A program made the position numbers and the translations under genes. A DNA stretch of 64,000 bases from Escherichia coli. Its GTDB lineage: Bacteria > Pseudomonadota > Gammaproteobacteria > Enterobacterales > Enterobacteriaceae. This document shows, in pieces, positions 2,408 through 61,972 of the stretch. The notes beneath the pieces were generated by a model, which ran no database searches, had not been told where the DNA came from, and saw only the letters and a program-made list of their open reading frames with translations. The DNA is taken from NCBI RefSeq assembly GCF_002854065.1, contig NZ_CP024151.1; one strand, written 5' to 3'. The number at the start of each line of letters is the position of its first letter. Positions within the stretch are counted from its first letter, which is position 1.

Positions 2408-2502
2408 ATGGTATTCCTTCTGAGTTGCATCACGAACATTTATTAATAATAAAAGCCTCTGATATAAATAAAAACTATGTAAATCGTTTAAATGGATACC
2501 TG

Positions 2503-9032: not shown

Positions 9033-9108
9033 GTCCCCCTCCAACACTATTCCCCCTCCTACGGGCGGCAACTAGCTCGTCTGGGCCGACACGTAAAGTT
9101 TCGAACAT
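9025..9108 (-). CDS. tap: repA1 leader peptide (tap/repA6-like), translationally coupled
   Basis: 27-codon [30 protein letters not shown] whose stop overlaps the repA1 start codon, the arrangement known for IncFII tap. Confidence 0.45.
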
Positions 9109-10178: not shown

Positions 10179-10529
10179 TTACGACCGTTTAATGTGATTT
10201 TGATAATGAAATGACTGAAAAGCTGGAAATGCCTTAGCCAGGGTGCCGGCCCCGGGCGGGACCGGCTGTTTCTGGTATATAGGATGTCTGCCCCTGAAAT
10301 ACCTCACACTTCCGGAAAGCGGGGACTTCCGTGCTTCGTAGGCCAGAGTTACCTGCACCACTGTATTTCCTCTGTGAATATTCAGCTCACATAACCGTTC
10401 CCTGAATATCAGTGAAAAACACAACACCATGGCGCACACGGCGAGCAACCCGATAAGGGCATATTTCGTCATAAACTTTGACCTCTCTGCAAAGAAGAGG
10501 CTACAATCAGTAGTGTTAAGGTACTTCAT
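10179..10529 (-). CDS. srnB: SrnB/PndA (Hok-family) toxin locus: mok-like leader in frame with toxin; ORF lacks the expected stop
   Basis: MKYLNTTDCSLFFAERSKF-MTKYALIGLLAVCAMVLCFSLIFRERLCELNIHRGNTVVQVTLAYEARK matches SrnB; reading frame continues 48 codons past ...EARK. Confidence 0.7.
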   Translation of the reverse strand: MKYLNTTDCSLFFAERSKFMTKYALIGLLAVCAMVLCFSLIFRERLCELNIHRGNTVVQVTLAYEARKSPLSGSVRYFRGRHPIYQKQPVPPGAGTLAKAFPAFQSFHYQNHIKRS

Positions 10530-11478
10530 GCAGACCTCACGAGTTAATGGATTAACGAGTGGGGTCTTCGCATTTCTGGTACCTGCGTCTTGCCTGAACC
10601 AGAAAGGCTCAGACACCCGCCGCGATAATACCACATTCCCTGTTGCTGGCTATTACCCCCATTTGCCTGTTTTTGTTACAAAAACGCCGGGAGCGGGGGA
10701 AAACTTACTTTTTCCCGTTTCCGGGGGGGACAACTGAGCATTGCGAACGCGTCAGCTACGATGTTCCGGTGATTGCTGATCAGCCCCTGTTGTATTCATA
10801 AACTAATTAACATTCATTCCGTCTGGTGCATAAATCTGCCCGTGAACATCTGCAGACAATACCGACCATAAAAAAATAAATAATCCCAGTAGAATATATT
10901 TCCTCATATTATTATCCATAACAAATAAATGGCACCTGTACACCTGTATTTCAGGCAATCCTGAATATTGCAGCGCACATTGAATAAGACGTTATTTCGT
11001 GACATTAATCACAAAATATAAAATCGCGACTTAATACGGAAAAAACTCTGTGCTACTCAGAACTGACTGGTCATACTGCCCGACCGGATATTAAAAAAGC
11101 AAATCTCATAAACTCCTTTCAGCCTTCTGACTCCTGGAGTAATGAAGGCTGCTTTTTCGTTACACCCTTCCCCGGCAGCGCCGGTAGCAGTGTTCAGCCC
11201 TTTTTCGGGCAAACTGCTGCCAGTCTGTCCGGGGCGCAACACAGGCAGCCCGTCGCCATCCTTCTGCCGCTTCCATCCAGCGTCCACTGACCTCCAGAAT
11301 AACGGCCCGGCTTCCGGCACGCTGCCAGCGCCAGACCTGACCGTTCCGTGAACTGTTTCTGAATCCATTCATCTTTATCACTCCTCTTTAACCCGTCAGT
11401 ATTATGGTGTTAAATAATCTACTGAATTGGCTTCCTTTCGGGTACGGAAGTTTATTTCCTTTTAAGCCTTATTTCCCT

Positions 11479-11507
11479 GCCTCCTCTCTCTGATGGAGGC
11501 TTTTTTT
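11479..11507 (+). terminator. Candidate rho-independent terminator (hairpin plus T7), overlapping finO stop
   Basis: GCCTCC-N10-GGAGGC followed by TTTTTTT on the plus strand; coordinates approximate. Confidence 0.3.
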
Positions 11508-12066
11508 ACTTCTCATCAAGCACGGCCTGAAGTTCTGCCTTTATCCGGTTCTGGCGGCGGATTTTATCCAGACGCTCTGCCGCATACGCTTCCTCCTCCT
11601 GAGAAATATGCTCCGTCACATACCCTTCCGTGTCATACCGGCAGGCACCGGCTTTCATGGCACACAGATAGCTTTCTGAACGGGTGATGGCCTTCAGCGC
11701 CCTGCGCAGTTTTTTATGCGAGAGCGGGATATTCCGCTGCGCCACGTCTTCCAGTAACACGTCCCGGATACCGCAGGCCAGAAGCCGGGGGGTGTCACCG
11801 TCAAATAATCCCGGCCACCAGGGCTTCAGGGTGTTCACGGCTTCATCCAGTGTGGGCAGGTTCAGATAAATGGACAGCGCCTGTCTGGCCTGCGCTTTTT
11901 TTGCCGCCAGCTCTGCCTCCCGAGCCGCTTTCTCCACCAGCTTCTGCTTTTTCACCTTCCATTTTGGTGGCGTGGTGACATTGATGATGGTTTTCCGGTT
12001 GCGGACAGGCGCTGTTCCCTCTGTCTTCCGCTTCAGTGTCAGTACCGGTCGCTTCTGCTCTGTCAT
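11506..12066 (-). CDS. finO: Fertility inhibition protein FinO (intact)
   Basis: 186 aa [17 protein letters not shown]...[16 protein letters not shown], full-length FinO. Confidence 0.95.
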
Positions 12067-12886: not shown

Positions 12887-15800
12887 TCAGTCTCCGCCCA
12901 GGGTTTTCTCTTTCTGCAGGGCACGAACCATATCCCGCTCCATCTGCTGCAGTCGCTCCTGCAGCAGATTTTCCCGGGCAACATCCCGGACCGCTTCCCG
13001 CACCCGTTGTGATTCACGCAGCACACTCTCCGGCAGCGCGGCTTCCCGTTCAGATATGGCAGACCGGTCACGCTCCTGCCCGGCAATCTCCCTGACAGCC
13101 TGCTCTGTTTTGCCATCCGGCAGGTCAGGTTTGTTCTCTGCCATTTTACGGACAATTTCATCCGCACGGCGTTCCGTTTCACGGCGGATGGCCTCTTCAG
13201 CTTGCCGCTGTGCCAGTACCTCTGCCGTGACCGGTTCGCCATTTCCGGCTCCCGGCTGAACGCTGTTGTCCGGGATATCCCCCCACACGCGACCACCGGT
13301 GATGGTACCGGGATTCCACGGACGACCTTCACCGGCGATTCTTACCACCACACCGCTGTCAGGATTATCACGGGCAATCCGGACACCATCCTGCATATTA
13401 TCAGCCAGCAGGCTCTCTCCGTTACGGCTGCCCTGCAGGGCCACGAACTGCGCATCCCCGCTGCCTTTCACCCGGCCTTCACCACTGAAGCCCCGCAGCC
13501 CGTTTCCGTCATCCGTGGTCAGCGGATTCAGCCAGATACCGGCGGACTTGCCGTTACGGTCAAAAGCCGGCAGTGCCACATACGGCTGCGGATATTTGCG
13601 CCCGGGTGCAATAAACCGTGCAGGATTGTCTCCCCCGGCAAGTCCCGCCTGACGGAGAACGGCACGGCCGGCCGCCACGTCCCGCAGCTCCCGCGCCGTA
13701 CTGAACAGCCGCTCTGCATTCATGACCTCCCGGTCCGATTTCGGCTCAAGCACATCGTGGGCAGTTCCTTTCTGTACGGCATTGTTAATGGCATCCGTCC
13801 AGCCCTGACGGTTATCGGTATACACCTGCACATGCTGCTTCATACGCGACAGGGCCACGTAGGCTGACTCAAAGCCGGCCATCTGTTTCCGGCTGCCTTC
13901 CGTACCTTCAAGCGCGATGGCAAAGGTTTCACTTGCCCCCTGCGCACCGTGGGCGGTGATGGCATAGGCCAGGTCAATATGTTGCTCTGCCCGCTCCTGA
14001 CCGGGGCGAATCACCCGGGTCTGCTGTCCGTCCGACAGCGTGACACTGTCACCGGAAACCGCTGTCACCGTCCAGACGCTGTTGGCCACATAACCGCGCT
14101 CCCGGTCACTCTTCGTGAAGCGCATCCGGTCACCGGTTCCCACCCGGATGGTGTCCGGGGTGTACAGTGTGACGCCTTCAGCCACCGCCTCCCGGGGCGA
14201 AATCAGCCGCGTGTTACCTTCAGCATCCTGCAGGGTTATCAGCCCGTCATCCCTGCTGATACCGGCAATCCGGTGATACACATTATCCACCAGGGCAAGT
14301 GCGTCCCGATGTGTCTCCCAGGTGGAGAGACGACGCAGCTCCCCGTCGCGTATATTCGCTGTGTTCAGGACAGGCACCATGACCTGCTCTTTTCCCAGCT
14401 CACCGGCCTTTTCCCGTGCATCATGAATCATGCTGTTCAGCACGCGCCGGTCCTCATTCAGGTGCGTGACAATCAGCGTCTGCTCCCGTGCTTCCGGTGT
14501 TCTGCCGGTATAGTCGCGGACAATGGCTTCATACAGTGTCATGGGGACATCCGGGAAAGCCTCGCCTTTCAGCATCGCCTTCTGCTGCGCTTCTGCCAGT
14601 TTCGCTTCCTGGCTGTGACTGAACTCCATCACGGAGTGCTCCGGTGCCCATGCGCCCTCCAGACGTGGCACCTGAGACGGTTTCACACTCTCAAGCCCGG
14701 ATAGTGCCCTTTCCACATCCCGGTTAATCAGGTTGTATACCGCCTCCCGCAGTTCCGGCGTCTGACGCACAATCTCCTTCATGATGGCCACATCGGCAGC
14801 ACTGCGCGTCTGCTGGAGACGGAAAGGCTGACCGGGCGCGATGGCCTGCAGCTGGTCCGTGTCACCACTGGCCACGGCACGACCGCCACCGGCCGCAATC
14901 AGGGCGTATGCCCGTGCCATGTCGGTATTGCCCACCATTGAGCTCTCATCGAGCAGGAACAGCGTGTTGCTGAAATCCGGCGTTTCTCCGCTGCGCTGCT
15001 GCAGCTGCGTGTCATGCAGAAAAGACGCCAATGTCTGCGCATCCACGCCGGCGCTGCGCATCTCCCCGACCGCACGGTGTGTGGGACCCAGCCCAACGAC
15101 ACGGGGACGCTCACTCTCCGGCAGCATGTTCACGGCTGACATCACCGCCCGGAACTGTGTGGTCTTACCCACACCGGCATAGCCCTGCACCACCGTGAAG
15201 CGGTCGGACGTTTCCAGTATCATGCGGGTGGCGGCGCGCTGTCCTGATGTCAGTTTCTCCATGAGTTCGCCAGGTACTCTCTCCATCAGCGGCGTGACCG
15301 CCTCCTTACCTTCGAGAATATGGCGAAGAATGCTCTTTTCTGCCTCATACGACGCACGGGAAACCAGCAGGCCTGTGCCATAGTCTTTTGCCACATCCAC
15401 ATACAGTAAATCACCCCGTTTTATCTGCGCATCGATTTCCCCTCCCAGTTCAGTAAAACTGGTTCCTTCTGCAGCAAACGACTTCGCCTCTGTCAGCAGG
15501 TCCACCATGCTGAAGGCCAGGTTTTTACTTTCCAGCACAGGAAGGGCCAGATGAATGGCCTGCTGTGCCGGCGTGTGAAGCCCGGCTTTCTGCAGACTGA
15601 TAGCGGTTTCCAGCAATGTCTCACCGGCACGCGCCTTTATCTGCTCAGAAACCACCGTAAAGGAGGGATGGCGGGCAAGTTTTTCCGCAGTACGGGTTTC
15701 ATCCAGTGAGGAATACAGCCGGACATCACGACCGCTGCGGGCCAGACCGTTCAGGGTGGCGTTGTCCATTGCCATCTGTGTGACGGAGGCAAAAACCTTC

Positions 15801-18157
15801 GCACTGTCGCTGACGGAATGCCCGGGCGTTTCCACCCAGCCGCTCTCCAGCTTCAGTGCCGTGAACGGTGAATCAGCCACAGGCAGGGAGGCCGGTTCAG
15901 CCCGTCCCGGCACAACAACCGTCATCGCGTCCTCGCTGACGGATGCCACCTGCAGGAGGTCACCGCCGGAGACGCGGAGTCCGGGAATTTTCCCGGTCAC
16001 CCTCAGACGCTCGCCGTCTGCCACCGGCATTTTTTCCGGCCGGAACAGCGACCAGCTGCTGTCCAGGGAGGAAATACGCACCACCTGCGTTTCACCCTGC
16101 GCATCCCGCAGGGTCAGGCTGTGACTCTGCGCCGTCACCCGGTCGATAACATAGCGGTCATGACTGCGTGTCTCCGGGTTCCACTGCTCCATCACCATCC
16201 CCGGACGGTACATATCCCGCAGATAACGGCTCCGGCTGTCCAGCCAGACCGGTGACAGTGCCGTCATGGTTACCTCCGGGTGTCCGAGCACGCCCTGTGT
16301 TTTCAGCTCACTGCGAATGGCCTGTGTCAGTATGGCCTGTTCCCGTACCCCGCTGACCTGTGCCACGCTCTCTTCTCCGGCTTTCACGCTGGCCGCAAAA
16401 TCTCCTGCCAGCCGGGCATAGCGGACATTACGGTCCGGTTCACTGATGATGGTGGCCGGCCGCTGTTCTCCCCCCTGCCAGCGATATGTGTTCACCCCGG
16501 CATCTTTCATGGCCATCAGTGCACTGCCTGTACCGGTTCGCTGCCCGCTGTCGGTTATCAGGACCTGTACGTTATGACGTGCAGCACCGTCCAGCAGGGT
16601 TAACGTCTCTTTCAGGGAGAGTTTTTCGCCCTGGTCAACGATAACAGTATTGCCCGGCGTGAAGGCCATGCCCTCCTGCAGCTGACGACGTCCGGTTATC
16701 AGCTCACCGGACAGCCGTTCATCCTGCTTCAGGTTCATCTGCGAGCGACGGTCAGCGGCGATAATCTGCACCTCCCGCCCCTGCTCCCGGGCCATCATGA
16801 CCAGCTCCGCCACCCGCTCACGCTGCCCGGCTGCACCGCCCTGCCCGGACACAATAGCCAGCGACGGGCGATCCTGTGCCAGAACACTGACCGCATCGCT
16901 GTAACCGGCCGTCCGGGGGACACTTTTCTCCGGATGTACGGTCACCCGGTTCTGTTTCATGATGTCACGACTGAGTGCCCGGACTGACAGCTCATCGAGC
17001 ACATGAATCCCGGACGTGAACAGCCCCTTCTCACGATCGAGGGGGATAAGCTGCTCACGGCTGATGGCCTCATCGATACCGGCGCGTGCCCGTTCAATCA
17101 CACCATTTTCCGGCGGCAGTATGCCGACCGTTCTGGCCAGCACGTCCGTGTACGTAAACTGCACTTTGCGTTCACTTAATCCGGCAATCGCCTGTGTCAC
17201 CGCCTGCTGCACATCCGGCCCGTCCGGTGAAGCAGGCCCGGGCGCCTGCGTGCGGGTCTCCGCCCGTTGATCCGCCGCGTCACGATACGCCCGGATGTCG
17301 AACCCGGTTTCCCTCAGCGTCTGCATCCATTCAGCCATTCTGACTTCAGGATCGACGTGCTGTTTGGATTTTCGCGTATCCAGTGCCGCCACATCCCGGG
17401 ATTTCAGCGAGGCATCTTCCCCGACGGCCTCCCGGATAGTCTGTGAGCGTCCGGAAAAGGCCTCCACCGGTACGCCCGGCATCTCCCACATACCGTGCTT
17501 ACCCACCACTTCGGTTTCATAGCCCAGCGCCTCAACCTGCTCTTTCAGTTTTTCCCGGTAGAGCCTGCCAAAGGCAATCTGATTAGCGTACACATTCTCA
17601 ATGAACCCCGTTTTCCCCACTTTGTCACTGCTCAGTGTCTTCCACTCACCGTTATGCTGCGTAACATTAGCCACCACCGCATGCGTGTGTAACTGTGGTT
17701 CCTGATCGCGACTGGTGTCGTGGTTAAACAGTGCCATCACCAGATTACCGGTCAGTACCGTTTCTGACTGTCCGTCCGTCATCACCCGTGTGGAGGCCAG
17801 CGCCTCCACCTGACGAACAGCAAAGTCCACGGCCTGGTTATGTGCATCAATCAGGCGCTTATCGCCACCTAACATGGCCATCATGGAGACACTTTTGGGG
17901 GCGGAGAAGGTCAGGTCGTAGCCGGGACGATGCTTATTACTGCCATCCTGCATGCGGCTTAGATCCGCTCCGTCCGGCAGCCTTCCCTCCAGAAGACGGG
18001 TAAAAACATCCTTATCGACACTGCCCTGCAGTCCCAGCTGTTCAGCCCCCCTGCCGGCCCAGCGTTCTCCCATGCTGCCCAGTACATAGTAATTATCCTT
18101 GTCGGTATAATAGTTACCGGCACTTCCGGCCGATCTGACCTGCGCGATACTCATCAT
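12887..18157 (-). CDS. traI: TraI relaxase/helicase (MOB-F)
   Basis: 1756 aa [43 protein letters not shown]..., F TraI size and N-terminus. Confidence 0.97.
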   Translation of the reverse strand: MMSIAQVRSAGSAGNYYTDKDNYYVLGSMGERWAGRGAEQLGLQGSVDKDVFTRLLEGRLPDGADLSRMQDGSNKHRPGYDLTFSAPKSVSMMAMLGGDKRLIDAHNQAVDFAVRQVEALASTRVMTDGQSETVLTGNLVMALFNHDTSRDQEPQLHTHAVVANVTQHNGEWKTLSSDKVGKTGFIENVYANQIAFGRLYREKLKEQVEALGYETEVVGKHGMWEMPGVPVEAFSGRSQTIREAVGEDASLKSRDVAALDTRKSKQHVDPEVRMAEWMQTLRETGFDIRAYRDAADQRAETRTQAPGPASPDGPDVQQAVTQAIAGLSERKVQFTYTDVLARTVGILPPENGVIERARAGIDEAISREQLIPLDREKGLFTSGIHVLDELSVRALSRDIMKQNRVTVHPEKSVPRTAGYSDAVSVLAQDRPSLAIVSGQGGAAGQRERVAELVMMAREQGREVQIIAADRRSQMNLKQDERLSGELITGRRQLQEGMAFTPGNTVIVDQGEKLSLKETLTLLDGAARHNVQVLITDSGQRTGTGSALMAMKDAGVNTYRWQGGEQRPATIISEPDRNVRYARLAGDFAASVKAGEESVAQVSGVREQAILTQAIRSELKTQGVLGHPEVTMTALSPVWLDSRSRYLRDMYRPGMVMEQWNPETRSHDRYVIDRVTAQSHSLTLRDAQGETQVVRISSLDSSWSLFRPEKMPVADGERLRVTGKIPGLRVSGGDLLQVASVSEDAMTVVVPGRAEPASLPVADSPFTALKLESGWVETPGHSVSDSAKVFASVTQMAMDNATLNGLARSGRDVRLYSSLDETRTAEKLARHPSFTVVSEQIKARAGETLLETAISLQKAGLHTPAQQAIHLALPVLESKNLAFSMVDLLTEAKSFAAEGTSFTELGGEIDAQIKRGDLLYVDVAKDYGTGLLVSRASYEAEKSILRHILEGKEAVTPLMERVPGELMEKLTSGQRAATRMILETSDRFTVVQGYAGVGKTTQFRAVMSAVNMLPESERPRVVGLGPTHRAVGEMRSAGVDAQTLASFLHDTQLQQRSGETPDFSNTLFLLDESSMVGNTDMARAYALIAAGGGRAVASGDTDQLQAIAPGQPFRLQQTRSAADVAIMKEIVRQTPELREAVYNLINRDVERALSGLESVKPSQVPRLEGAWAPEHSVMEFSHSQEAKLAEAQQKAMLKGEAFPDVPMTLYEAIVRDYTGRTPEAREQTLIVTHLNEDRRVLNSMIHDAREKAGELGKEQVMVPVLNTANIRDGELRRLSTWETHRDALALVDNVYHRIAGISRDDGLITLQDAEGNTRLISPREAVAEGVTLYTPDTIRVGTGDRMRFTKSDRERGYVANSVWTVTAVSGDSVTLSDGQQTRVIRPGQERAEQHIDLAYAITAHGAQGASETFAIALEGTEGSRKQMAGFESAYVALSRMKQHVQVYTDNRQGWTDAINNAVQKGTAHDVLEPKSDREVMNAERLFSTARELRDVAAGRAVLRQAGLAGGDNPARFIAPGRKYPQPYVALPAFDRNGKSAGIWLNPLTTDDGNGLRGFSGEGRVKGSGDAQFVALQGSRNGESLLADNMQDGVRIARDNPDSGVVVRIAGEGRPWNPGTITGGRVWGDIPDNSVQPGAGNGEPVTAEVLAQRQAEEAIRRETERRADEIVRKMAENKPDLPDGKTEQAVREIAGQERDRSAISEREAALPESVLRESQRVREAVRDVARENLLQERLQQMERDMVRALQKEKTLGGD

Positions 18158-20319
18158 CAGAAATCATCTCCCGGCTCAACATCCTCCCCACGCTCCCGGT
18201 GCACATTAATGTTCACCTCTTCACGACGCTGCATCTGCTGCTGGATGTCCGGATGATTTTCCTGTTGCCATGCCTCATAAGCGGCCATATCCACCACTTC
18301 ACCGGATTCACTGATCCCGGGTGGCAGTTGCTGTTCCATCTCTTCTTCCGGTTTCATTTTCAGCTCCTGCTCGATCCCCCCTGCCGGAACATTCACACCT
18401 GAATCTGACTTCTTATCGTTTATGGCAGGAGACACCGGCTGTTGCGGCTGTTGCGGCTGTTCAGCCTGAGTCACGTCTTCTCCGGAAACAACTTCCGGCA
18501 CATCCGGTTCGAAGAGGCTGGCCATCTGACGACCTTCTGCTTCCCTTGCGGCAAGTACGGCACTCAGACGGTTCTCCATTTCCGGGTTGATGTCACGCGG
18601 AATAAACTCAGGGGCAACCTTCGGACGTGCCTGATATTTCAGTGAGAGTTTTACTGCCGGATACGGTCCGGGCAGGGTGACATAACAAGTCAGATCCGGC
18701 AGAGACTGAATGTCGGAATAACTGACCAGCGTCTGGCGCTCCATATCCTTACCGGTCGATACCCCGTCACGTACCGGATCAGCACCGTAGGAATACTGCT
18801 CGCTGGCTTTCAGGTGCTCTTTCTCACCAATCTCACCGGCAGCGAACTCTGCAATCTTATGGCTGGGAGAACGGAAAAAGGCACGAGTGTTCATGACGTC
18901 AAACAGCGTGGCAGCCGCTTTCTCACCGTAGATATCTTCCAGCTGGGCATAGGACTGGATACCAAACACATAACAGCCACCGAACTTACGGGCTTCCGGC
19001 AGGATCTCCACCAGGTCCGGCAGTTTGTGTAACGTGGGTAGCTCATCACAGAAAAACCACACACGACGGTTACGGTTTTCTCCCATTGCCAGCAGACCAC
19101 GAATGGCAATGGACAGCCACATGGAGATCACCGGCTTCAGGGAGGCATGGGTGTCGGCATTCGACGAGATAAACAGCCAGCCGTTTTTCTGATCTTCCCG
19201 GACACCCCGCATCCAGTCACGGATGGTAAAAGACTCACCGTTATGCTCAATCCCCTGCAGGTAACGGATGGCTTTCACGTAGTTGGTCAGCACAGCACGG
19301 ATGGAAATCGCCGTTTTCTCAATTTTCTCTTCCACCAGGTTGGCCGCCGGTGAATTACGCAGGAAGGTACGCAGTTTTTCGATTTTGATGGAAAGCAGTG
19401 TGTCCACCAGTTTGCTGTAGCTGCGGTTGGGGTCATTACGCATCAGGTACGCCGCTTCCGCAAAAATGGTACGTCCTGAACCCTGCCAGAACGGGTCCTC
19501 TTTTGTGCCCATCGGGATCAGAGTATTTGCGGTATTATCAAAATCCGGCTGTGTCAGGCACTCCTTCCACAAATCCCAGGCGGCACAACGGGCATCCAGC
19601 GGATTCAGGATTTTATCGATGGAGGGATCATAGTAACTTTTAACAAATTCCCCTGAACGGTCATAAATCACCACCATATCTCCACGCTGACGGGCGTAGT
19701 TGGCCAGACGACGGATAACTTCCGACTTACCGGCCCCGACCGTGCCGTGCAGACAGAAGTTCTGGATTTCGGAATCCCGGATAATCGGCAGGTCGCCAAT
19801 CCGTATATCGGAGTCCTTGCCGTCTTTTTTCAGCATCCGGGCAACGTCTTTCGGGTTCTCCGTCAGCTGACGACCACCTGTGACTTCATTTTCGCTCTGT
19901 TGTTTACCCTGACGCCCCAGAATCCAGGAGACAACAAAGAAGGTAATCAGGCAAATAACCAGTGCCACAACTGTAGCCAGAACGAATGCGGACCATAGCT
20001 GCTCTCCGCACCAGATCATATATTTATCATGCAGTACCTGAGCAGCGTTCATCCGGAAGGTTTTGCCGTAATACTGGATCTCATAGACCGGCTGGGACTT
20101 GATTAAATCCCGCATGCCTTCCAGCGTGGTACACCACCAGTAAATACAGCCGTTCACAAACGTCTGCCAGCTTATTTTTACCCATAAAACCAGACCAACG
20201 AGTATCCAGAAAAAAATAAACAGGCAGTAAAGCATGATATTGGCGATCTGGCTGAACATGCGGATACGCATGGACGCAATCTGACCGCCCTGGGTCATAT
20301 CCTTTGCGTTAAAACTCAT
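18157..20319 (-). CDS. traD: TraD type IV coupling protein
   Basis: 720 aa [24 protein letters not shown]..., Walker [10 protein letters not shown]-terminal QQP repeats; stop overlaps traI start. Confidence 0.97.
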
Positions 20320-21315: not shown

Positions 21316-21825
21316 TTAACTAACAGACTCTTTTTTGAACAGTCCTATTACTGAGGCTATAGCTGAGAGATTATAACGATTTATATCTATGGTATACACC
21401 AAGAAAAATAATATGAATGTAATCATTAGTGCAAAAACATATAAGATAGAATGCATAAACGAAACCATAGAAAAAACAATCAAAAACAACAAAATATATG
21501 TCTTACTCTTAGAATACATAAAATTTATTATTTTTGAATCCTTTCTGAAACTATCAGGAATCGCAAGGTATAACATCATTCCATTTGTAATAGCCACAAA
21601 AAGCAGGAACCCCATCATTCCACTAGCACATATATCAAAGCCAACATCCCTGACATCACTTTTAACCGATACTAAACGCAGAAAAGTTGGCCATAATAAA
21701 ACCCATAAAAACACATAAGTTCCCGGCTTTATGACTTGTAATAATGATGGGATATTAACACCCTCTACAGAGAGTACCTCCTTTAGTTTTTGCATCTCCA
21801 TTCTTATATCATAGTGAGTGATCAT
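21316..21825 (-). CDS. traS: TraS entry exclusion inner-membrane protein (divergent)
   Basis: 169 aa hydrophobic ORF between traG and traT; ATG overlaps traG stop; sequence not recognisably conserved, called by position. Confidence 0.55.
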
Positions 21826-24647
21826 AATGGCCCCTTCAATCGTTCTTTCTTATCATCCACCATCTGTTTTAACGCATCTTCAGACGGTGTTGGCATTAAT
21901 TTCTGTCGTTTATTTTCTTCATTATATCTGTTGTTTTGTTGAATTTCTTCCTGTTTGTGATTATTTTTTAACTCTGAATATTGTCTGTCTACAATATTTT
22001 CTTCGCCATGAATACTATTCTGAGTATCTCCGATATTCCCTTTATATTCTGTGACCATATTATCAACCTGATGTTTTACATCATTACGGATATTACTGTC
22101 CTGCGTTCTTTGATCAATAATGGCCTGATGCCCCTGATGGTCAGCAATAATATCCTGGCTGCCACCACCCGAAGGTACGCTCTCCATTCCTTTACCAATA
22201 TCCCCACGGGATTCACGCCAGGCATTATCAACACCAGGCTGCACCTGTTCCTGAACAAAAGACCATGCCATCGCCCGACGGCGTTCTGCAATCTCCGGTG
22301 AACTGGTGTTTGTCAGAATAGCTTCGGCATCCTGCGGTGCGTGTTTCATCACATACTGTGCAAACTGTTGCGACAAATCTTCGCTCATCTGCCCACTCAT
22401 GCTTTCAGTACGGGATGCCATTTCAGCATATTCATGGCTGCGGGTCATATTCGTCGTGTACTGGTCGTAACTCTGTTTCGCTGAGTTCAGGGCTGCAGAC
22501 AACTGGTCCACGCGGGAATCGGCATTATTGTCAGTATGGCTGCCGGATTCACTGACTTTGCGACTGGTAAAGTAATCGCTGGCCTCTTTAAAGTCCTTAC
22601 TGGCTTTAGCATCGATATCATGGCGAGCATCATGGGTAGCCCTGCTGCCACTACTTGCTGAATGTGAGTCATCATCCGTTGCATCCAGGCTCCCCTTAAA
22701 TCCACCTCTGATGCCTACCCCACCACCAACACCAAGAATTTTAGGTTTAACCCCCCATTCAGCATGAGCATCAGCATACATTCCACCAGATAGCCTGGTA
22801 CTTGTTGATGCCAGTTCCTGAGTCGCCTGCTCATTACTGATATTATGCGCCTTCGCATAGCTTTCCACTGCACTGCGCATACGGCTGGCCATCATGGAGT
22901 CCTGAGCACTCATCGTGCTGTCAGCACCACCGGTGACAGAATCACTGCTCCCCCGGTTAGAACCAAACTGACTGAGCGTGTTCCAGGCACTGGCAATACT
23001 GCTGCTGAACCCATGCAGGGCACTTTCTGCTCTGTTCGATGCTTCCCGGGCCATTTCCTGTTGTGCCGCCGCAATCTGACGCGTTGCATTGATGCCGACC
23101 GGTAACCGGGACATCGCTCCGCTTGCATCCATCACCATATTACCGTCACGGGTCTGTGTGGCGGTTGCGCCACTGCCGGTCTGGTACATCATCTGACCAA
23201 ACGACGTGGTGCTGTTGGTGCTCCAGCTGAAGCCGTTAACATTCTCCGTCTGCATGTTGCCGTAGGAGTAATTACCGTCAACCACACTGCCTGCTGCACT
23301 GGCGGTCGGGCTGATAGCAGAGGAAGCGAAATGGCTGTACACACTGGAAAATCCTGCCCCGAGCCCCCTGACCATCATCCAGGATAATGGCGGGATCATC
23401 ATGGAAAGATACCCGGCAGTGGAAGCCAGATCGGAGTATTTCAGCTGTATCTGTGAAATTTCCGAGAGCACCACCGGTGCACCATTCTGCTTTGCATAAA
23501 ATGTCATGGCGCTGTTCAGAATGGCGTACAACATTGGCCATGACTGCAACCACATCAGGGCAAACACATAGCCTTTCAGGACGGACAGCGTCAGTTTGTT
23601 GAAGACAGCCGCCAGTACCAGGAGCGGGAAAATACCGATGGCGATCCCCGTCAGGATGGTCTGCGTCATGGGCAGTGTCCGCATCGCCACATGACCGATG
23701 GAGACATGTGCCAGACGTTGCTTCTCCATCGATGATGTGGTGGCCAGATTCACCAGGCTGGCCGAATCACCATTACGTGCGGCATAACTGGTGATCCCCT
23801 CCTTCAGCGCATTGATGGTGACATTCTGGCGGATGATCTGGCTGGCTGATTTACTTGAGCCATAGAAGTAACTGTAACTGTCGCCAATCAGCGTACTGAA
23901 CAACAGGTTCGGATCAGGGCGTCCACCAAATAGCTGCTGGGCATAATAATGCCATGTTTTTCCGCCACTCTGTGTGTCCAGATTCAGCTTGTCTTTCAGC
24001 GAAACCGACGCGTCCTTACAGGTCACGAAATTATTATTGCTGTCATAAACGCCCCGCAGCGGACTGGGGCGGGAAAAAATCAGCGTGTAAGGATCAGCGG
24101 AGGCCATCAGTTCCTCCAGCGTGTATTTGTGGTTCAGGTAAATATCCCCCATCACGCAGTTCTGCACATAATCCTGGAAAAGATTGGCGATTTCCGGATT
24201 ACGGGACAAAAAGTCGGTGCTTTTTGATACCAGTTCTGCGCCAAACAGCATCCCCGTTTTGCTGTAGGTGACACTGTCCGGTTGCGTGAAGATCATCTCG
24301 TAACTGGCCACCATTGCATGCCCGATACGGGTCGTCAGTGAAAGTGGCATCGCCAGTCCGACCGGCACATTATCCACCCGGTGAACTTTGACCAGGTCAC
24401 TGTTATCAATAATCTGCACCGATGTGCGGACATTAACCAGCAGGCTGATAAGCACAAACACGGCCACCCAGCCCAGCAAATCCATCACGTTGTGCCGCTG
24501 TACCCACATTACGGCCACCGCGAGAACAGACAATGTGAGCGCAATTTTTTCAATGGAATCCCACGTCCGGGTCCCCATAAAGGCGGCAATGGCATTCAGG
24601 TTATTCCGCAACCACTCACCACCGGCAATCACATAAACTTCATTCAC
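21822..24647 (-). CDS. traG: TraG mating pair stabilization / pilus assembly
   Basis: 941 aa MNEVYVIAGGEWLRNNLNAIAAFMGTRTW...; GTG start overlapping traH stop. Confidence 0.95.
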   Translation of the reverse strand: MNEVYVIAGGEWLRNNLNAIAAFMGTRTWDSIEKIALTLSVLAVAVMWVQRHNVMDLLGWVAVFVLISLLVNVRTSVQIIDNSDLVKVHRVDNVPVGLAMPLSLTTRIGHAMVASYEMIFTQPDSVTYSKTGMLFGAELVSKSTDFLSRNPEIANLFQDYVQNCVMGDIYLNHKYTLEELMASADPYTLIFSRPSPLRGVYDSNNNFVTCKDASVSLKDKLNLDTQSGGKTWHYYAQQLFGGRPDPNLLFSTLIGDSYSYFYGSSKSASQIIRQNVTINALKEGITSYAARNGDSASLVNLATTSSMEKQRLAHVSIGHVAMRTLPMTQTILTGIAIGIFPLLVLAAVFNKLTLSVLKGYVFALMWLQSWPMLYAILNSAMTFYAKQNGAPVVLSEISQIQLKYSDLASTAGYLSMMIPPLSWMMVRGLGAGFSSVYSHFASSAISPTASAAGSVVDGNYSYGNMQTENVNGFSWSTNSTTSFGQMMYQTGSGATATQTRDGNMVMDASGAMSRLPVGINATRQIAAAQQEMAREASNRAESALHGFSSSIASAWNTLSQFGSNRGSSDSVTGGADSTMSAQDSMMASRMRSAVESYAKAHNISNEQATQELASTSTRLSGGMYADAHAEWGVKPKILGVGGGVGIRGGFKGSLDATDDDSHSASSGSRATHDARHDIDAKASKDFKEASDYFTSRKVSESGSHTDNNADSRVDQLSAALNSAKQSYDQYTTNMTRSHEYAEMASRTESMSGQMSEDLSQQFAQYVMKHAPQDAEAILTNTSSPEIAERRRAMAWSFVQEQVQPGVDNAWRESRGDIGKGMESVPSGGGSQDIIADHQGHQAIIDQRTQDSNIRNDVKHQVDNMVTEYKGNIGDTQNSIHGEENIVDRQYSELKNNHKQEEIQQNNRYNEENKRQKLMPTPSEDALKQMVDDKKERLKGPL

Positions 24648-41072: not shown

Positions 41073-41300
41073 CTAAAGTTCTTTAAATGTTGACTCGCTC
41101 TCTTCGGTCACCTCCCTGAATATTTCTTCGTTATAGAAATCAGGAAATCGTTTCAGATGATCTCTGAGACGGATCTGGACTTCTATCGTTTTACTTCTTC
41201 CACTACGATCTTTGGCCTTAATAAGTCGGTTATTTGTATCTTCATCGAGATACACCGAGACTGTTCTGCTTATACCGCCTCTCGCGTTACGCCTCCTCAC
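41073..41300 (-). CDS. traY: TraY (R100-type, 75 aa RHH oriT-binding protein)
   Basis: MRRRNARGGISRTVSVYLDEDTNNRLIKAKDRSGRSKTIEVQIRLRDHLKRFPDFYNEEIFREV... Confidence 0.85.
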   Translation of the reverse strand: MRRRNARGGISRTVSVYLDEDTNNRLIKAKDRSGRSKTIEVQIRLRDHLKRFPDFYNEEIFREVTEESESTFKEL

Positions 41301-41394
41301 TCAATTCACCTCTGTTTCCCGACTAATAAAATTATGATTGCACAGAAACCGACGAAAAAAAAACACGCCAAAATTGGCGTGCCTTATTTAACAT

Positions 41395-42081
41395 TTACTT
41401 AACGCTATAAAATTCACGAATTATATTTAATAGCAAATCTATTTTCCCTTTATAGATACATGACACTCTGAATAAATCAAAGTGTTCAAAAAATTCTTTT
41501 ATTTTCCGTTTAACTGGTTTAATTCGATCCTCAGATGCTCTGTCTGTAATACCCAATTCTCTGGCAATTGTTGCATGACCAACACCCAGCATATAAAAAG
41601 AGAAAACAAGCAATGTCCCGGGGGAAAGATCATTCCATATCGTTAATTTATCAGAAGTATTTGTATTACTTCCACTCTGACTTAACGCAAAAAATGGATA
41701 ATCAGGAAACGGATTAATTTGCCATAAAACAACAGATTCGTCATTATAAAAAGAAACATTCTCCATCCTTATCTGATAGATTTCGCCATGAAAATTAAAA
41801 CGACGACAAAATGCAGAGCCATGTCCAAGAGCCTGGCATTCCAATTCAAGTGATGAAAGAAAAATTTCAACCTGCAGACGTATATAACTCTCTCCGGATA
41901 AGGGTTTATCTTCTCTGGAAAAGAGTTCAATAAAAGCCCCATTGGCATAAAGGATTTTCCGGTTTTTGTTACGGACACAAACCGGAACGGGAGAATTTCT
42001 GTAGATATTCTGAACGTTAAGGATGTACTTATTTACAGATTGACTGTTAAGTGGCCTTTCTCTACGATCCAGCGCACACAT
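41395..42081 (-). CDS. traJ: TraJ transcriptional activator of the tra operon
   Basis: Position between traY and traM; start taken at internal ATG ([13 protein letters not shown]...) preceded by GGAGG; 228 aa. Confidence 0.8.
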
Positions 42082-42152
42082 AGGAACCTCCGTTAAGGAT
42101 TCTATGGACAGTCGATGCAGGGAGTTCAGACCTCCCTGCATCGGCGATTTTC
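42072..42152 (+). ncRNA. finP: FinP antisense RNA (approximate bounds)
   Basis: Antisense to traJ leader/RBS; hairpin GATGCAGGGAG-N6-CTCCCTGCATC followed by GCGATTTT on the plus strand. Confidence 0.5.
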
Positions 42153-42271
42153 AGTTTCAATTTTTAACGTGGCATTAACCACGTAATTAATATACTAATT
42201 ATCTGACGTATTGTCATCTTTTTGAATCATAAAAATTCTTATATTTGAACCAACTCAAACTTCATTTTCAT

Positions 42272-42655
42272 TTATTCATCATCATTTTTTGGAAAAAACC
42301 GGTCCATCTCAACAGACACTTTCTCTCTGATATCGTCAACCATACTGGCATATTCAAACTTCGGGTTTCCGGAGACATGAGGACTGAGAGACTCAATACC
42401 TAAAATCTTTGCCACCGTTGACTGTGTTTTTACAACACATTCAAGAAGAAGTTTATTAAACTCTGTCTGGTTAAACGCAGACTCTTTACGCTCCATCTGT
42501 GCATCATATACGCGAAGCCCCAATTCAAGAAGCATTGAAGCAGTTCCTGAAAGGCTTATATCTTTATCTCTTGCTCCCTCCTGACGACGCTTTTCAACAA
42601 TCATGTTAATTTTTTCATGAACCTCATTACTGATATACAGATTTACTCTGGCCAT
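42272..42655 (-). CDS. traM: TraM relaxosome accessory protein
   Basis: 127 aa MARVNLYISNEVHEKINMIVEKRRQEGARDKDISLSG... Confidence 0.95.
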   Translation of the reverse strand: MARVNLYISNEVHEKINMIVEKRRQEGARDKDISLSGTASMLLELGLRVYDAQMERKESAFNQTEFNKLLLECVVKTQSTVAKILGIESLSPHVSGNPKFEYASMVDDIREKVSVEMDRFFPKNDDE

Positions 42656-43069
42656 AAGACAGTACCTTTTATATTCTGAAACAAGTGTTTTATTTCATTT
42701 ACTAATAGTTTGGTCTGAAAAAAGAAGAGCACCCCTAGCAGCGCCCCTAGGGGCATACTATAAAAAAACGCACGGCGCTGCTAGGGGCGGCCCTAATATA
42801 TCCAAATGTTTTTCATAAAATTTGTCAGTACTGACCCTAACAAGGGTCGCCATAGGGTCGCCATAGGGTCGTCAACGCCCCTATTTAATAATGTAAAATA
42901 AATTAAAATACATTATTTAAAACATAAGCTAATGATTCAAAAAGCAAATCAGCAAAAACTTGTTTTTGCGTGGGGTGTGGTGCTTTTGGTGGTGAGAACC
43001 ACCAACCTGTTGAGCCTTTTTGTGGAGTGGGTTAAATTATTTACGGATAAAGTCACCAGAGGTGGGAAA
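42656..43069 (+). other. oriT: oriT; nic site between 42978 and 42979 on the plus (transferred) strand
   Basis: Plus strand carries the F nic sequence TTTGCGTGGGGTGT^GGTGCTTT, inverted repeat GGTGGTGAGAACCACC (42988-43003), and GGGTCGCCATA direct repeats upstream. Confidence 0.85.
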
Positions 43070-43579
43070 ATGAAAAAATGGATGTTAGCCATCTGCCTGA
43101 TGTTTATAAATGAGATCTGTCTGGCCACTGATTGCTTTGATCTTGCAGGCAGGGATTACAAAATAGATCCTGATTTACTGAGAGCAATATCATGGAAAGA
43201 ATCCCGTTACCGGGTTAATGCCATCGGTATTAATCCGGTAACGGGATATGGCAGCGGACTGATGCAGGTAGATTCCCAGCATTTTAACGAACTGGCCCGC
43301 TATGGAATTAAGCCGGAACATCTGACAACAGATCCCTGCATGAACATTTATACCGGTGCTTATTATCTGGCAATAGCCTTTAAAAAATGGGGCGTCTCCT
43401 GGGAGGCCGTTGGTGCATACAATGCCGGATTCAGGAAAACCGAACGCCAGAACCAGAGACGTCTTGCCTACGCATCAGATGTTTACCGGATTTATACCGG
43501 GATAAAAAGCAGTAAAGGTATCCGGCTTCCGGCCACGAAGAAATCACTTCCGGAAATTAACAGCGAGCAGAACAATTAA
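43070..43579 (+). CDS. Lytic transglycosylase Orf169 (gene X / P19 family)
   Basis: 169 aa from [12 protein letters not shown]... with SLT motifs; GAGGTGGG RBS; divergent from traM. Confidence 0.9.
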
Positions 43580-45123: not shown

Positions 45124-45765
45124 GTTTTCAGCCCCCATCATCTGTTGAGTTTCGGGAGCCGCGGTTTTGACGTTTTGCGGGGACCTGCCTTTTGTTCCCT
45201 CCGGTATTCACCATCACCTTTTTGAGAACCTTCGCCGCAAGGGGCATCACTGCCACGGCCGGAAACGACTGTCCGGGGGCAGACCGCAAAAGTTTTTGCC
45301 TGCTTTTGAGCAAAAAGTTTTGCGGGATGTGCATTTCACCCCTGGACTGGCGGAGACGGTTGTGGCTGTCTATGCCCCCGGCGACAGGGGCTTAAACAGG
45401 TGAATGGCACCGGACACAACAACGGGCAGGGACCCGCCGCAACGACGTGAAGCGCGGTTTGCGAAACGGCGTTGCCCCTTACATCCCGGCGGCCTTTTGC
45501 CGGGATGCCGGGAGCGCAGGCCACGGCGCGACAGAGGCGGCGCGACCGGAACGGTCGCTGCAAGCCCGGGGTTTTCACGCATCGGACCGTAGCGACAGCC
45601 CGAAACCGCGCCAGCGGGTTCGGCGGAGACTGGCAGGTGCGCCAGCAGCTGCCTGTCGGAGTCGGGTCTGACGACCGGATGCCGCCAGGCAGCCGGGAGC
45701 CGAAGGTGCGCCCGGCAGACAGGACAACACTGCAGTAGTCAGAATCAGAGCAGGAAGAAAAAGAG
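45124..45765 (-). repeat. GC-rich leading-region repeat, copy 1 (Frpo/ssi-like candidate)
   Basis: ~640 bp nearly identical to 50461-51093 and, over its distal ~390 bp, to 53826-54433. Confidence 0.8.
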
Positions 45766-46024
45766 AATAATCACAGGGAAGGTGATGTGATTTCTGACAG
45801 GCCATAACCAGAGAAGGCGGGGGAAAAGAACGGGCGCCGCAGGCGCGCGTTCATCCCCGTTCCTGAAGGGAAACGACCTTCCTGAAGTCAGGTTGTTCAT
45901 GCCCGTACAACATCAGCAAGGAGAAAGGGGCTACCGGCGAACCAGCAGCCCCTTTATAAAGGCGCTTCAGTAGTCAGACCAGCATCAGTCCTGAAAAGGC
46001 GGGCCTGCGCCCGCCTCCAGGTTG

Positions 46025-46183
46025 CTACTTACCGGATTCGTAAGCCATGAAAGCCGCCACCTCCCTGTGTCCGTCTCTGTAACGAATCTCGCACAGCGAT
46101 TTTCGTGTCAGATAAGTGAATATCAACAGTGTGAGACACACGATCAACACACACCAGACAAGGGAACTTCGTGGTAGTTTCAT
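46025..46183 (-). CDS. hok: Hok-family toxin (Hok/FlmA-like), intact
   Basis: [52 protein letters not shown]; 3' UTR GC-rich fold-back region follows. Confidence 0.85.
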
Positions 46184-46241
46184 GGCCTTCTTCTCCTTGC
46201 GCAAAGCGCGGTAAGAGGCTATCCTGATGTGGACTAGACAT
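46029..46241 (-). CDS. mok: Mok/FlmC-like overlapping reading frame
   Basis: 70-codon ORF overlapping hok in the +1 frame. Confidence 0.6.
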
Positions 46242-46462
46242 AGGGATGCCTCGTGGTGGTTAATGAAAATTAACTTACTACGGGGCTATCTTCTTTCTGT
46301 CACACAACACGGCAACAAACCACCTTCACGTCATGAGGCAGAAAGCCTCAAGCGCCGGGCACATCATAGCCCATATACCTGCACGCTGACCACACTCACT
46401 TTCCCTGAAAATAATCCGCTCATTCAGACCGTTCACGGGAAATCCGTGTGATTGTTGCCGCA

Positions 46463-53354: not shown

Positions 53355-53585
53355 TCAGTTAAAAGCGCGTTTCAGTTCGAGTGTGCGGAGCACCTGCCCG
53401 AAGGCCGTGTTTTTCATGGCGGGGATGTGTACACCACGCCCCCGGTGAAAACTCCGGGCAATGTGTCGCCCGAAGGCTTTCAGCACGGGGTCAATTTCCG
53501 GCGCGGGGATGTCTTCGCGTCTGAAACGGGGATGACGGCGGGGCTTTACAGCCGCTGCGGAAGGTGAAACAATACTTACTGTCAT
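53355..53585 (-). CDS. Hypothetical small basic protein (76 aa)
   Basis: ATG with AAGGAG RBS, downstream of repeat copy 3. Confidence 0.45.
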   Translation of the reverse strand: MTVSIVSPSAAAVKPRRHPRFRREDIPAPEIDPVLKAFGRHIARSFHRGRGVHIPAMKNTAFGQVLRTLELKRAFN

Positions 53586-53825
53586 AAATGAAACTCCTTA
53601 TGACAAATTGGTTAACAATGCCGTCAAAATTGGTTGTGCAATTCTTACGGCGTGGATTAAGCAGGTCCCTGACCTGCTTTTTTCATATCTGCGTCTGACG
53701 TTCTACGGTGTTTTCCTCCTTCTGTTCCTGCGTTCTCATTACCTGCCAGCCGGATGACTGACAGAACAAATAAATGCATATTGCCGGAGCCTGAAATAAA
53801 TCCTGATTTTTAAAGAACATCACCC

Positions 53826-60702: not shown

Positions 60703-61972
60703 TGTTTGCACTGGCTGATATCAACAGTTTCTACGCCTCATGTGAAAAAGTTTTCCGCCCGGACCTTCGCAACGAACCGGTCATCGTACTCAGCAATAAC
60801 GATGGCTGTGTGATCGCGCGCAGCCGGAGGCAAAAGCCCTTGGCATCAGAATGGGGCAGCCCTGGTTTCAGGTGAGACAGATGCGCCTGGAGAAGAAAAT
60901 ACATGTATTTTCCAGCAATTATGCGCTGTACCACAGCATGAGCCAACGGGTCATGGCTGTTCTGGAGTCGCTTTCTCCCGCAGTTGAGCCCTACTCAATT
61001 GATGAAATGTTCATTGATTTGCGGGGGATAAATCATTGCATCTCTCCGGAGGTTTTTGGTCATCAGCTCAGGGAACAGGTAAAGAGCTGGACAGGACTCA
61101 CCATGGGGGTGGGCATTGCGCCTACAAAAACGCTGGCTAAAAGTGCACAGTGGGCAACAAAGCAATGGCCACAGTTTTCCGGTGTGGTCGCGCTGGAGGC
61201 AGAAAACCGTAATCGGATCTTGAAGCTACTGGGGCTGCAGCCAGTTGGTGAGGTCTGGGGAGTAGGACGCAGACTGACGGAAAAGCTGAATGCGCTGGGT
61301 ATTAACACAGCACTGCAGCTGGCGCAGGCTAACACGGCATTCATCCGGAAAAACTTCAGCGTCATTCTTGAGCGTACGGTACGCGAACTCAACGGCGAGT
61401 CCTGCATATCCCTGGAAGAAGCACCACCGGCAAAACAGCAGATTGTCTGTAGTCGCAGTTTTGGTGAACGAATCACAGACAAAGATGCCATGCACCAGGC
61501 TGTTGTTCAGTATGCAGAGCGGGCCGCAGAGAAACTACGTGGGGAGCGTCAGTATTGCCGGCAGGTGACGACATTTGTACGGACATCCCCCTTTGCAGTA
61601 AAAGAACCCTGTTACAGCAATGCCGCTGTGGAAAAGCTTCCATTACCCACACAGGACAGCCGGGACATTATTGCCGCAGCATGCAGAGCGTTAAACCATG
61701 TCTGGCGTGAAGGGTACCGCTATATGAAGGCAGGAGTCATGCTGGCTGATTTCACACCATCGGGTATAGCGCAGCCGGGATTATTTGATGAGATCCAGCC
61801 CCGTAAAAACAGCGAAAAGTTAATGAAAACACTCGATGAACTGAACCAGTCTGGAAAAGGGAAAGTGTGGTTTGCGGGGCGAGGAACCGCCCCTGAATGG
61901 CAAATGAAACGGGAAATGCTCTCGCCTTCGTATACAACACAATGGACTGAGATCCCCATTGCTTCATTCTGA
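60702..61972 (+). pseudogene. impB: ImpB (UmuC/MucB-like Y-family polymerase), apparent -1 nt frameshift near 60822-60826
   Basis: N-terminal 40 codons (MFALADINSFYASCEKVFRPDL...VIARS) in frame 0 then stop at ~60878; remainder (EAKALGIRMGQPWFQ... 373 aa) continues in another frame. Confidence 0.8.

Follow-up and report, generated by a model that had tools for sequence, protein, structure and literature searches.

The interval 42656–43069 of the window (the whole 64-kb stretch of E. coli DNA analysed here) lies between two divergent genes of an F-like plasmid transfer region. It raises the question of which of the known F-like systems supplied its transfer origin and the regulatory genes beside it. 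A preliminary description of this DNA had answered with a mosaic F/R100-type system under FinOP repression, in which an F-like nick site stands next to R100-type regulatory genes. Judging from the sequence, we are confident that the interval is the transfer origin (oriT) of an IncF conjugative plasmid of the classical kind (MOBF12 group A), which is built of known alleles. This configuration is already known and very common.

Layout of the locus and its nick site

The interval is the exact gap between traM and orf169 and was therefore taken as oriT (Table 1). It could be aligned throughout with oriT of F (NC_002483) and of R100 (NC_002134). The open reading frames and the annotation of the window gave the order traM-traJ-traY-traA...traI-traX-finO on one strand. 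The regulatory set of traM, traJ, traY and finO that characterises classical F-like plasmids (PMC5102898) is complete, each gene being Pfam-supported, and a single long tra operon lies downstream of PY. Every protein of the locus falls in a curated family, and deposited plasmids carry the locus at 100% identity. As had been described, orf169 is divergent from traM and starts about 90 bp from nic, the ATG and the nick position being 91 bp apart. The orf169 protein has 98.2% identity to F orf169. When the roughly 130 bp that begin with the nick core and end at the orf169 ATG were compared with F and R100, only the 2-nt nick polymorphism and one ATG-adjacent base differed. The proximity of orf169 to nic is nothing peculiar, the same stretch being present in F and R100.

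Table 1. Features of the oriT locus and of the associated transfer genes, with positions in the window (↓, nick;., no strand given)
Feature	Position	Strand	Remarks
finO	11506–12066	-	186 aa, intact; FinO_N and ProQ/FinO domains full-length
traI relaxase/helicase	12887–18157	-	1756 aa
traD	18157–20319	-	within the tra operon
traY	41073–41300	-	75 aa, GTG start; Pfam TraY
PY control sites	41366–41404	-	ArcA CGTTAAGTAAATGTTAA 41388–41404, TraJ CGCCAATTTTGGCG 41366–41379; published R1 TraJ site exact, ArcA site with one mismatch
traJ	41395–42081	-	228 aa, as annotated publicly on an identical plasmid; PAS fold
finP antisense RNA gene	42040–42151	+	promoter-like TTGACT-17-TACGAT 42040–42068; RNA 42075–42151; Rfam RF00107, 91 bits
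traJ 5' untranslated leader	42076–42184	-	Rfam RF00243, 117.8 bits
traJ promoter-like site ATGACA-17-TATATT	42189–42217	-	10/12 matches; just upstream of the traJ leader (start 42184)
traM	42272–42655	-	127 aa; Pfam Tra_M, 176 bits
oriT (whole traM/orf169 intergenic region)	42656–43069	.	lies between the start codons of traM (42655) and orf169 (43070)
Putative TraM sites (sbmA/sbmB equivalents)	42729–42789	.	14-nt arms CCCCTAGCAGCGCC/GGCGCTGCTAGGGG; aligns with the F sbm region
GC-rich segment	42833–42883	.	three tandem 11-bp units (AGGGTCGCCAT at 42843–42875); TAGGG/CCCTA motifs
AT-rich segment, R1-type	42884–42945	.	at the F IHF-A and TraY (sbyA) position; placed by distance from nic
Inverted repeat GCAAAAAC/GTTTTTGC, 5' side of nic	42952–42959/42962–42969	.	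invariant in F, R100
TraI recognition/nick sequence TTTGCGTGGGGTGT↓GGTGCTTT	42965–42986	+	F/R1 type; unique match; same as F
Inverted repeat TTGGTGGT/ACCACCAA, 3' side of nic	42986–42993/42998–43005	.	invariant in F, R100
orf169 (gene X/gene 19 homologue)	43070–43579	+	Pfam SLT lytic transglycosylase; divergent from traM

The nick sequence on the + strand is of the F type, GCGTGGGGTGT↓GGTGC. The 22-mer TTTGCGTGGGGTGTGGTGCTTT was found once, at 42965–42986 on the + strand, and 100 shuffles gave 0 matches to it, even at <=3 mismatches. When the window was aligned with both F and R100, its reading GCGTGGGGTGTGG was that of F, whereas R100 reads GCGTAGTGTGTGG; the class was likewise of the F type, with GTGGGGTGT↓GG and not the R100-type GTAGTGTGT↓GG. 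Fold prediction of the single-stranded DNA gave two hairpins, one from each of the two 8-bp inverted repeats, and left nic unpaired. The F-like nic with its inverted repeats, as first described, was thus confirmed by a unique 22-mer, by identity to F in the alignment and by repeats on both sides. From the F literature, TraI would be expected to cleave the transferred (+) strand between 42978 and 42979. The R1 oriT oligonucleotides used in experimental work on R1 carry the same GGGG nick sequence.

The relaxase encoded 25–30 kb away is of the same class. TraI is 97.2% identical to F TraI. Structures from both F and R1 were matched by its relaxase domain, and its residues 150–250 have 100% identity to the crystal structures of the F relaxase. 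Residues 193 and 201 of TraI were reportedly swapped by Harley and Schildbach in 2003 and are said to be determinants of nick specificity; they are Q193 and R201 here and in F, and R193 and Q201 in R100. The pairing of nick and TraI was consistent in five of five plasmids: three (the window, F and pEC656_1) had GGGG with Q/R, and two (R100 and pP19A_1) had AGTG with R/Q. Because pP19A_1 has an R1-type traJ together with an R100-type nick, the nick type assorts independently of the regulator type while nick and TraI stay matched. Past these five plasmids, the linkage was followed through separate PLSDB totals, which are not joint counts. The exact 62-bp nick core of the F type and of the R100 type occurred in 2,508 and 1,260 PLSDB records, respectively, and the TraI specificity segment of the F type and of the R100 type in about 2,270–2,660 and about 1,270–1,350 records, respectively. 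The nick-type and TraI-type totals agree for the F type and the R100 type alike, and the F type is the more frequent of the two nick types. Presumably, the nick/TraI pair stays matched over this distance by selection. Taken from its sequence, the nick/TraI specificity class is F-type, and an F-type preference of the relaxase is predicted.

A three-part oriT and its TraM allele

Alignment with F, R100, pEC656_1, pMAR7 and KE50 showed that oriT is a three-part mosaic. The first part, about 42940–43069 (nick core through orf169), is common to all F-like plasmids except for the GGGG/AGTG polymorphism. The second part, from about 42888 to 42940, is AT-rich; it has the same sequence in pEC656_1, the stand-in for R1, but is unlike that of F and of R100. 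The third part, the traM-proximal 42656–42883, was not alignable with R1-type sequence and is the allele of pMAR7 and KE50. Going by the F spacing to nic, we take 42884–42945 to hold the IHF and TraY sites. A scan of oriT for the strict IHF consensus WATCAANNNNTTR returned 0 matches, and the IHF sites were therefore placed by position alone. On the traM side, the GC-rich repeat segment at 42833–42883 is probably the equivalent of sbmC, and the copy number of its 11-bp unit is variable, pMAR7 having one unit more. Within 42656–42790, a simple promoter scan gave no convincing candidate for a traM promoter.

The TraM protein has 100% identity to TraM of pMAR7 and is also 100% identical in plasmid KE50, and its identities to TraM of R100, F and the R1 type are 88.2%, 85.8% and 75.6%, respectively. 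Its sequence equals Swiss-Prot TRAM9_ECOLX exactly, and that of TraY equals TRAY4_ECOLX exactly; at the level of sequence, both are curated alleles described before. Studies have shown that residues 3, 5 and 7 of the TraM beta-ribbon determine site specificity (Wong et al., PMC3159463). In R1 and pED208, TraM with K3/Q5/Y7 reads GANTC, F TraM with K3/N5 reads A(G/C)CG(G/C)T, and R100 TraM has R3/I5 (PMC3159463). The beta-ribbon residues of the window TraM are R3-N5-Y7.

The sites beside this TraM are also of a type of their own. CCCTA/TAGGG occurred in 9 copies in 235 bp, compared with 0.07 expected, and was more than 100-fold enriched in 42656–42890 relative to the whole window. The window type of oriT had 9 CCCTA/TAGGG, 1 GANTC and 0 copies of the F motif, whereas R1-type oriTs had 10 GANTC and the F oriT had 3 copies of its own motif A(G/C)CG(G/C)T. 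The motif content of oriT co-varies with the TraM allele, in line with the published role of residues 3, 5 and 7. The copies at 42729–42789 are 12 bp apart, which is the spacing of the published TraM model, and CCCTAG-type motifs also stand in the copy-number-variable 11-bp tandem array at 42843–42875. We infer that CCCTA/TAGGG may be the TraM recognition element, and the candidate centred on CCCTAG would be distinct from both A(G/C)CG(G/C)T of F and GANTC of R1 and pED208. We tentatively propose, at somewhat less than even odds, that R3-N5-Y7 marks a structurally uncharacterised TraM/site class, perhaps reading CCCTAG, which was joined inside oriT near 42884 to an R1-type TraY/TraJ/finP cassette. 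If true, a new TraM site class would be a modest extension of the known allelic specificity and not a new kind of system.

In PLSDB, the traM-oriT-orf169 block occurred in 21 records at >=99% identity and in 1,485 records at 95–99% identity, and the traJ-traY block in 597 and 851 records, respectively. At >=95% identity, the traM-oriT allele was thus present in about 1,500 records and the traJ-traY allele in 1,448. The traM-oriT-orf169 block was found at 100% identity in at least six plasmids, and deposited E. coli plasmids, e.g., NZ_CP096835.1, NZ_CP080082.1 and NZ_CP116170.1, matched both flanks of the window at 100% identity.

A junction of R1-type and pMAR7-type sequence inside oriT, near 42884, could mean that mismatched modules leave the plasmid transfer-defective or derepressed despite its intact finO. 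We consider this very improbable, because the combination occurs in about 1,500 plasmids of several genera, which are mostly typed as conjugative, both TraY and the segment that is placed as sbyA is in F are of the R1 type, TraM and the segment with its sites co-vary, the C-terminal tail of TraD that TraM binds is identical to the F tail, and the tra genes are all intact. Examples of such mismatches would be an R1-type TraY unable to use this oriT, or a TraM-site allele unsuited to the F-type TraD and TraI. Instead, all specificity pairs look cognate in sequence, namely nic and TraI Q193/R201, the TraJ site and TraJ, finP and traJ, and TraM and its sites. With each protein beside its seemingly cognate site, the system is therefore predicted to be self-transmissible and repressed.

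The regulatory cassette and its parentage

Studies by Koraimann's group have shown that the recognition sequence of R1 TraJ in PY is CGCCAATTTTGGCG, located at -51 to -38 (PMC7303359), and that the ArcA binding sequence TGTTAAGTAAATGTTAA lies at -76 to -60 (PMC7303359). TraJ of R1 and TraJ of pSLT share 73% identity and are interchangeable, and the identity of R1-type TraJ to F TraJ is about 18% (PMC7303359). In the window, the TraJ site at PY is an exact match to the published R1 site, and the ArcA site, a tandem repeat, has one mismatch to the published sequence and stands 8 bp upstream of the TraJ site, as published. The identities of TraJ to its counterparts in pEC656_1, pSLT, R100 and F were 97.4%, 73.7%, 25.9% and 24.0%, respectively, and pSLT TraJ (4EW7) was the only structure match in the PDB. 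The value for pSLT is in line with the 73% published for R1 and pSLT. TraY was 96% identical to that of pEC656_1 and 48% identical to that of R100. When the transfer region was compared in 500-bp tiles, the R100 blastn match of the traJ and traY tiles was absent or weak, with none for the traJ tile. FinP folds into two stem-loops (-37.1 kcal/mol, z = -5.9), and it is antisense to the traJ leader, overlaps the traJ ribosome-binding site and is accompanied by signals that resemble a promoter and a terminator. The promoter-like sites of finP and of traJ both stand where they would be expected. Both loops of finP are the same as in pEC656_1, and the loops of R100 are different.

R1 (KY749247) was represented here by published site sequences, by the structure sequences of R1 TraM, 1DP3, and R1 TraI, 5N8O, and by the stand-in pEC656_1. 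We take 1DP3 to be the N-terminal domain of R1 TraM; residues 2–56 of TraM from pEC656_1 equal this sequence, and the ArcA and TraJ sites of pEC656_1 are exact. Because TraJ (97.4%), TraY (96%) and finP (identical) match a plasmid with R1-type TraM, the finP-traJ-PY-traY cassette is R1-type. An R1-type TraM would carry K3, Q5 and Y7 and stand beside GANTC sites, but the window has R3, N5 and Y7 and a single GANTC. TraJ and PY agree with R1 and TraM does not; therefore, the plasmid is a member of the R1 TraJ subgroup without being a copy of R1.

The same results bear on the reading of oriT-traM-traJ-traY as a plain R1 transfer control region with no extra mosaicism. The TraJ site, TraJ, TraY, finP and the AT-rich segment of oriT are all R1-type, and the nick is the one used in R1 work. 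Yet the 75.6% identity of TraM to the R1 type, its DNA-contacting residues, which are R3/N5 and not K3/Q5, and the 230 bp of oriT next to traM, which cannot be aligned with the R1 type and hold one GANTC against 10, make this reading less probable still. Pure R1 identity was ruled out by TraM and the TraM-site segment.

FinO of the window is 95.2% identical to R100 FinO, and FinO of pEC656_1 is itself identical to R100 FinO. Since FinO is not allele-specific and even the R1 stand-in carries the R100 form, the likeness of finO is uninformative on an R100 ancestry of the regulators. According to Fernandez-Lopez et al. (PMC5102898), F is the single exception to finO+ among the plasmids of MOBF12 group A, and Virolle et al. 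summarise that F is derepressed through an IS3 insertion in finO while R1, R100 and R6-5 are still repressed. A short TraY with an intact finO is the norm for classical F-like plasmids, F being the exception, and is no hallmark of R100. Based on these sequences, the plasmid is probably FinOP-repressed.

An F/R100 hybrid, with an F-type nick and R100-type traJ, traY and finO, is the least probable reading of all and hardly credible, because the R100-like points (a TraY of 75 aa, a FinO 95% identical and a traD that abuts traI without the intervening module of F) stand against TraJ and TraY proteins of 25.9% and 48% identity, traJ and traY tiles with no or weak blastn match, finP loops unlike those of R100, an R1 TraJ site in PY and a FinO similarity that is not allele-specific. 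R100 parentage of the regulators was refuted at the sequence level by the protein identities and the tile comparison.

The single observations of the preliminary description were right for traY (short form of 75 aa, 41073–41300, minus strand) and for finO (186 aa, with both domains full-length). The label of R100-type regulatory genes was wrong, given the identities of TraJ and TraY to R100, the different finP loops and the R1 TraJ site of PY. Of the mosaic F/R100 system under FinOP repression, the F-type nick and the mosaic stand, and repression is a reasonable prediction from the sequence, but the R100 parentage falls, since the regulators are R1-type. Correct local facts (F-type nick, short TraY, intact finO) had led to a wrong parentage label. 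A short TraY and finO+ are usual, the F-type nick is the commonest and R1 work uses GGGG; therefore, the locus has a standard, common configuration and is not an unusual F/R100 hybrid.

Transfer functions and comparison with known systems

The rest of the transfer region was mostly close to F. The traL, traE and traK proteins had 100% identity to F. In the 500-bp tiles, traN was 99.4–99.8% identical to F, compared with about 82% for R100, and the corresponding values of traH were about 98% and 79–85%. Tiles of traJ, traY and traS had no good match in F or R100, and traG was divergent in parts. The mating-pair set is intact, with traA, L, E, K, B, V, C, W, U, N, F, H, G, D and others 88–100% identical to F. 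As in R100, traD adjoins traI without the module seen there in F. Identical plasmids are typed as MPF_F and conjugative. In terms of sequence content, the window carries everything that defines a classical F-like plasmid of MOBF12 group A, i.e., the relaxase and its nick, the regulatory set and the mating-pair genes.

By analogy with F and R1, IHF and TraY would bend the AT-rich segment beside nic, and TraM tetramers would bind the repeats nearer to traM, forming a complex that docks to the TraD tail. TraI would then cut the + strand at GTGGGGTGT↓GG and pilot the strand out. Because the strand would exit 5'-first, the orf169/leading-region side would be the first to enter the recipient. Expression of the transfer genes would require TraJ, which with ArcA at PY would relieve silencing. 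Intact FinO would stabilise the FinP antisense RNA and thereby block traJ translation, leaving the plasmid repressed.

We believe that the region is made up of specificity modules which can be exchanged separately, each being a known allele. One is the F/R1-type nick core with the F-type TraI 25–30 kb off, and a second is the R1-type module of the sbyA-region sequence, finP, traJ, PY and traY. Further modules are traM with the TraM sites (pMAR7/TRAM9), the F-like pilus and mating-pair genes and a distinct traS entry-exclusion allele. Since the modules assort independently, the alleles of F-like plasmids need to be typed module by module, that is, by nick/TraI, sbyA/TraY, TraM sites/TraM/TraD tail, TraJ site/TraJ, finP and traS/traG. 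The combination in the window is among the commonest in sequenced Enterobacteriaceae plasmids. The prediction is of a repressed, self-transmissible plasmid, which would be mobilisable and would be cross-regulated by R1-type TraJ and FinP and not by the regulators of F or R100. Beyond annotation, this matters little.

With F, the window shares an identical nick, both inverted repeats, Q193/R201 of TraI, the TraD tail, traL, traE and traK (100%), traN (about 99%) and the 91 bp between nic and orf169. F differs in its duplicated TraY of 131–133 aa, compared with the single 75-aa form here, in TraJ (24%) and in its finP loops. F also has an interrupted finO, a VapBC-like pair between traD and traI, which is absent in the window, and another traS allele.

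With R100, the window shares the 75-aa length of TraY, the intact finO (95%), traD abutting traI and the overall gene order. In contrast, R100 has an AGTG nick (2 nt different) with R193/Q201 in TraI, TraJ and TraY of 26% and 48% identity, respectively, other finP loops, divergent traN and traH (about 80%) and an additional gene, for a hydrolase, between traX and finO.

With R1, as represented by the published sites and the stand-in, the window shares the TraJ site, the ArcA spacing, TraJ (about 97%), TraY (about 96%), finP and the AT-rich oriT segment, and likewise the F-type nick core, the 75-aa TraY and the intact finO. R1 differs in a K3/Q5 TraM (75.6%), compared with R3/N5 here, and in GANTC motifs in place of the CCCTAG type over the traM-proximal 230 bp. 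The pilus and mating-pair genes of the window are nearer to F than to R1.

The EPEC adherence-factor plasmid pMAR7 has TraM of 100% identity, the same oriT allele, R1-type TraJ (96%), TraY of 98.7% identity and an F-type nick. It differs in one more 11-bp unit in oriT, in small differences of finP loop I and in other accessory genes. The oriT allele, the R1-type TraJ and the F-type nick are shared with about 1,500 further sequenced IncF plasmids.

Regulators, oriT and the start of orf169

In the comparison plasmid pP19A_1 (sequences L012 and L014), traM, oriT, traY and traJ were all of the R1 type, whereas the nick was of the R100 type (AGTG) and was matched by a TraI carrying R193 and Q201. 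This combination of R1-type regulators with an R100-type nick and TraI shows that the regulator and nick modules assort independently. The traM, oriT and traY of pRHBSTW-00670_2 (L013) were also of the R1 type with an R100-type nick (AGTG), and its TraJ was only 68% identical to that of the window.

Otherwise near-identical oriT alleles differed in the copy number of the tandem 11-bp unit AGGGTCGCCAT. There were three copies in the window and in KE50, and four in pMAR7 (L010), both of which are plasmids with the TraM/oriT allele of the window.

In public records of plasmids identical to the window, an automatically annotated SLT protein of 215 aa (window 42932-43579, +) begins at an ATG at 42932, which lies 5' of nic, so that this ORF would span nic; a 200-aa version is annotated in other plasmids. 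For the classical product of 169 aa (N-terminus MKKWML), the start codon is at 43070 and a Shine-Dalgarno-like GAGGTGG lies immediately 5' of it; the 215-aa and 200-aa calls therefore look over-extended.

Entry exclusion

The TraS of the window was less than 30% identical to those of F, R100 and pSLT, no Pfam match was found for the 169-aa protein, and its protein cluster had 716 members. In the neighbouring part of traG (window 22500-24000, -), the nucleotide identity fell to 82-86%. The low TraS identity, the missing Pfam match and the divergence of the adjacent traG together suggest that traS/traG of the window belongs to a separate entry-exclusion specificity group.

Other loci of the window

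Just past the IncFII replicon, an IS3-family transposase is adjoined by genes for two cargo proteins, a 565-aa sulfatase and a 385-aa general porin (window 710-5421). This cargo looks unusual, but several deposited plasmids have it at 98-100% identity. Four Rfam matches above the gathering score in the window were AS-traI, AS-traG, AS-pc02 and AS-pc01, antisense RNAs originally described from plasmid pHK01. The Pfam IMS match of the Y-family polymerase ORF begins only at profile position 49, and for this reason the ORF may lack its N-terminal part, or its start may have been called wrongly. In the leading region, the G+C content at 45300-45900, a stretch flanked by the DUF932 gene and hok/sok, was 61-64%, compared with 35-49% around oriT; this stretch contained only short overlapping ORFs annotated as hypothetical.

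Positions of the features in the window and in comparison sequence L004
Feature	Sequence	Position	Strand	Region or basis
RepA	window	8175-9071		IncFII replicon
CopA RNA	window	9592-9680		IncFII replicon
hok/sok-type toxin-antitoxin locus	window	10460-10618	-	near replicon; Rfam sok match
AS-pc02	window	11080-11263	+	Rfam
AS-traI	window	15232-15308	+	Rfam
traS (169 aa)	window	21316-21825	-	
AS-traG	window	23843-23928	+	Rfam
Tandem AGGGTCGCCAT	window	42843-42875		oriT
hok/sok-type toxin-antitoxin locus	window	46181-46357	-	leading region; Rfam sok match
AS-pc01	window	53580-53682	+	Rfam
Y-family DNA polymerase ORF (impB/mucB/samB family)	window	60851-61972	+	Pfam IMS
VapC/VapB-like pair	L004	31967-32592		traD/traI junction comparison

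Junctions compared with known plasmids

At window 18157, traD directly adjoins traI, as in R100, whereas in pSLT and the F record the two genes are separated by a VapC/VapB-like toxin-antitoxin pair on the opposite strand, in the old 'trbH' region. In R100, pP19A_1 and pEC656_1 (the stand-in for R1), a hydrolase gene (uilS) lies between traX and finO, whereas the window lacks uilS.
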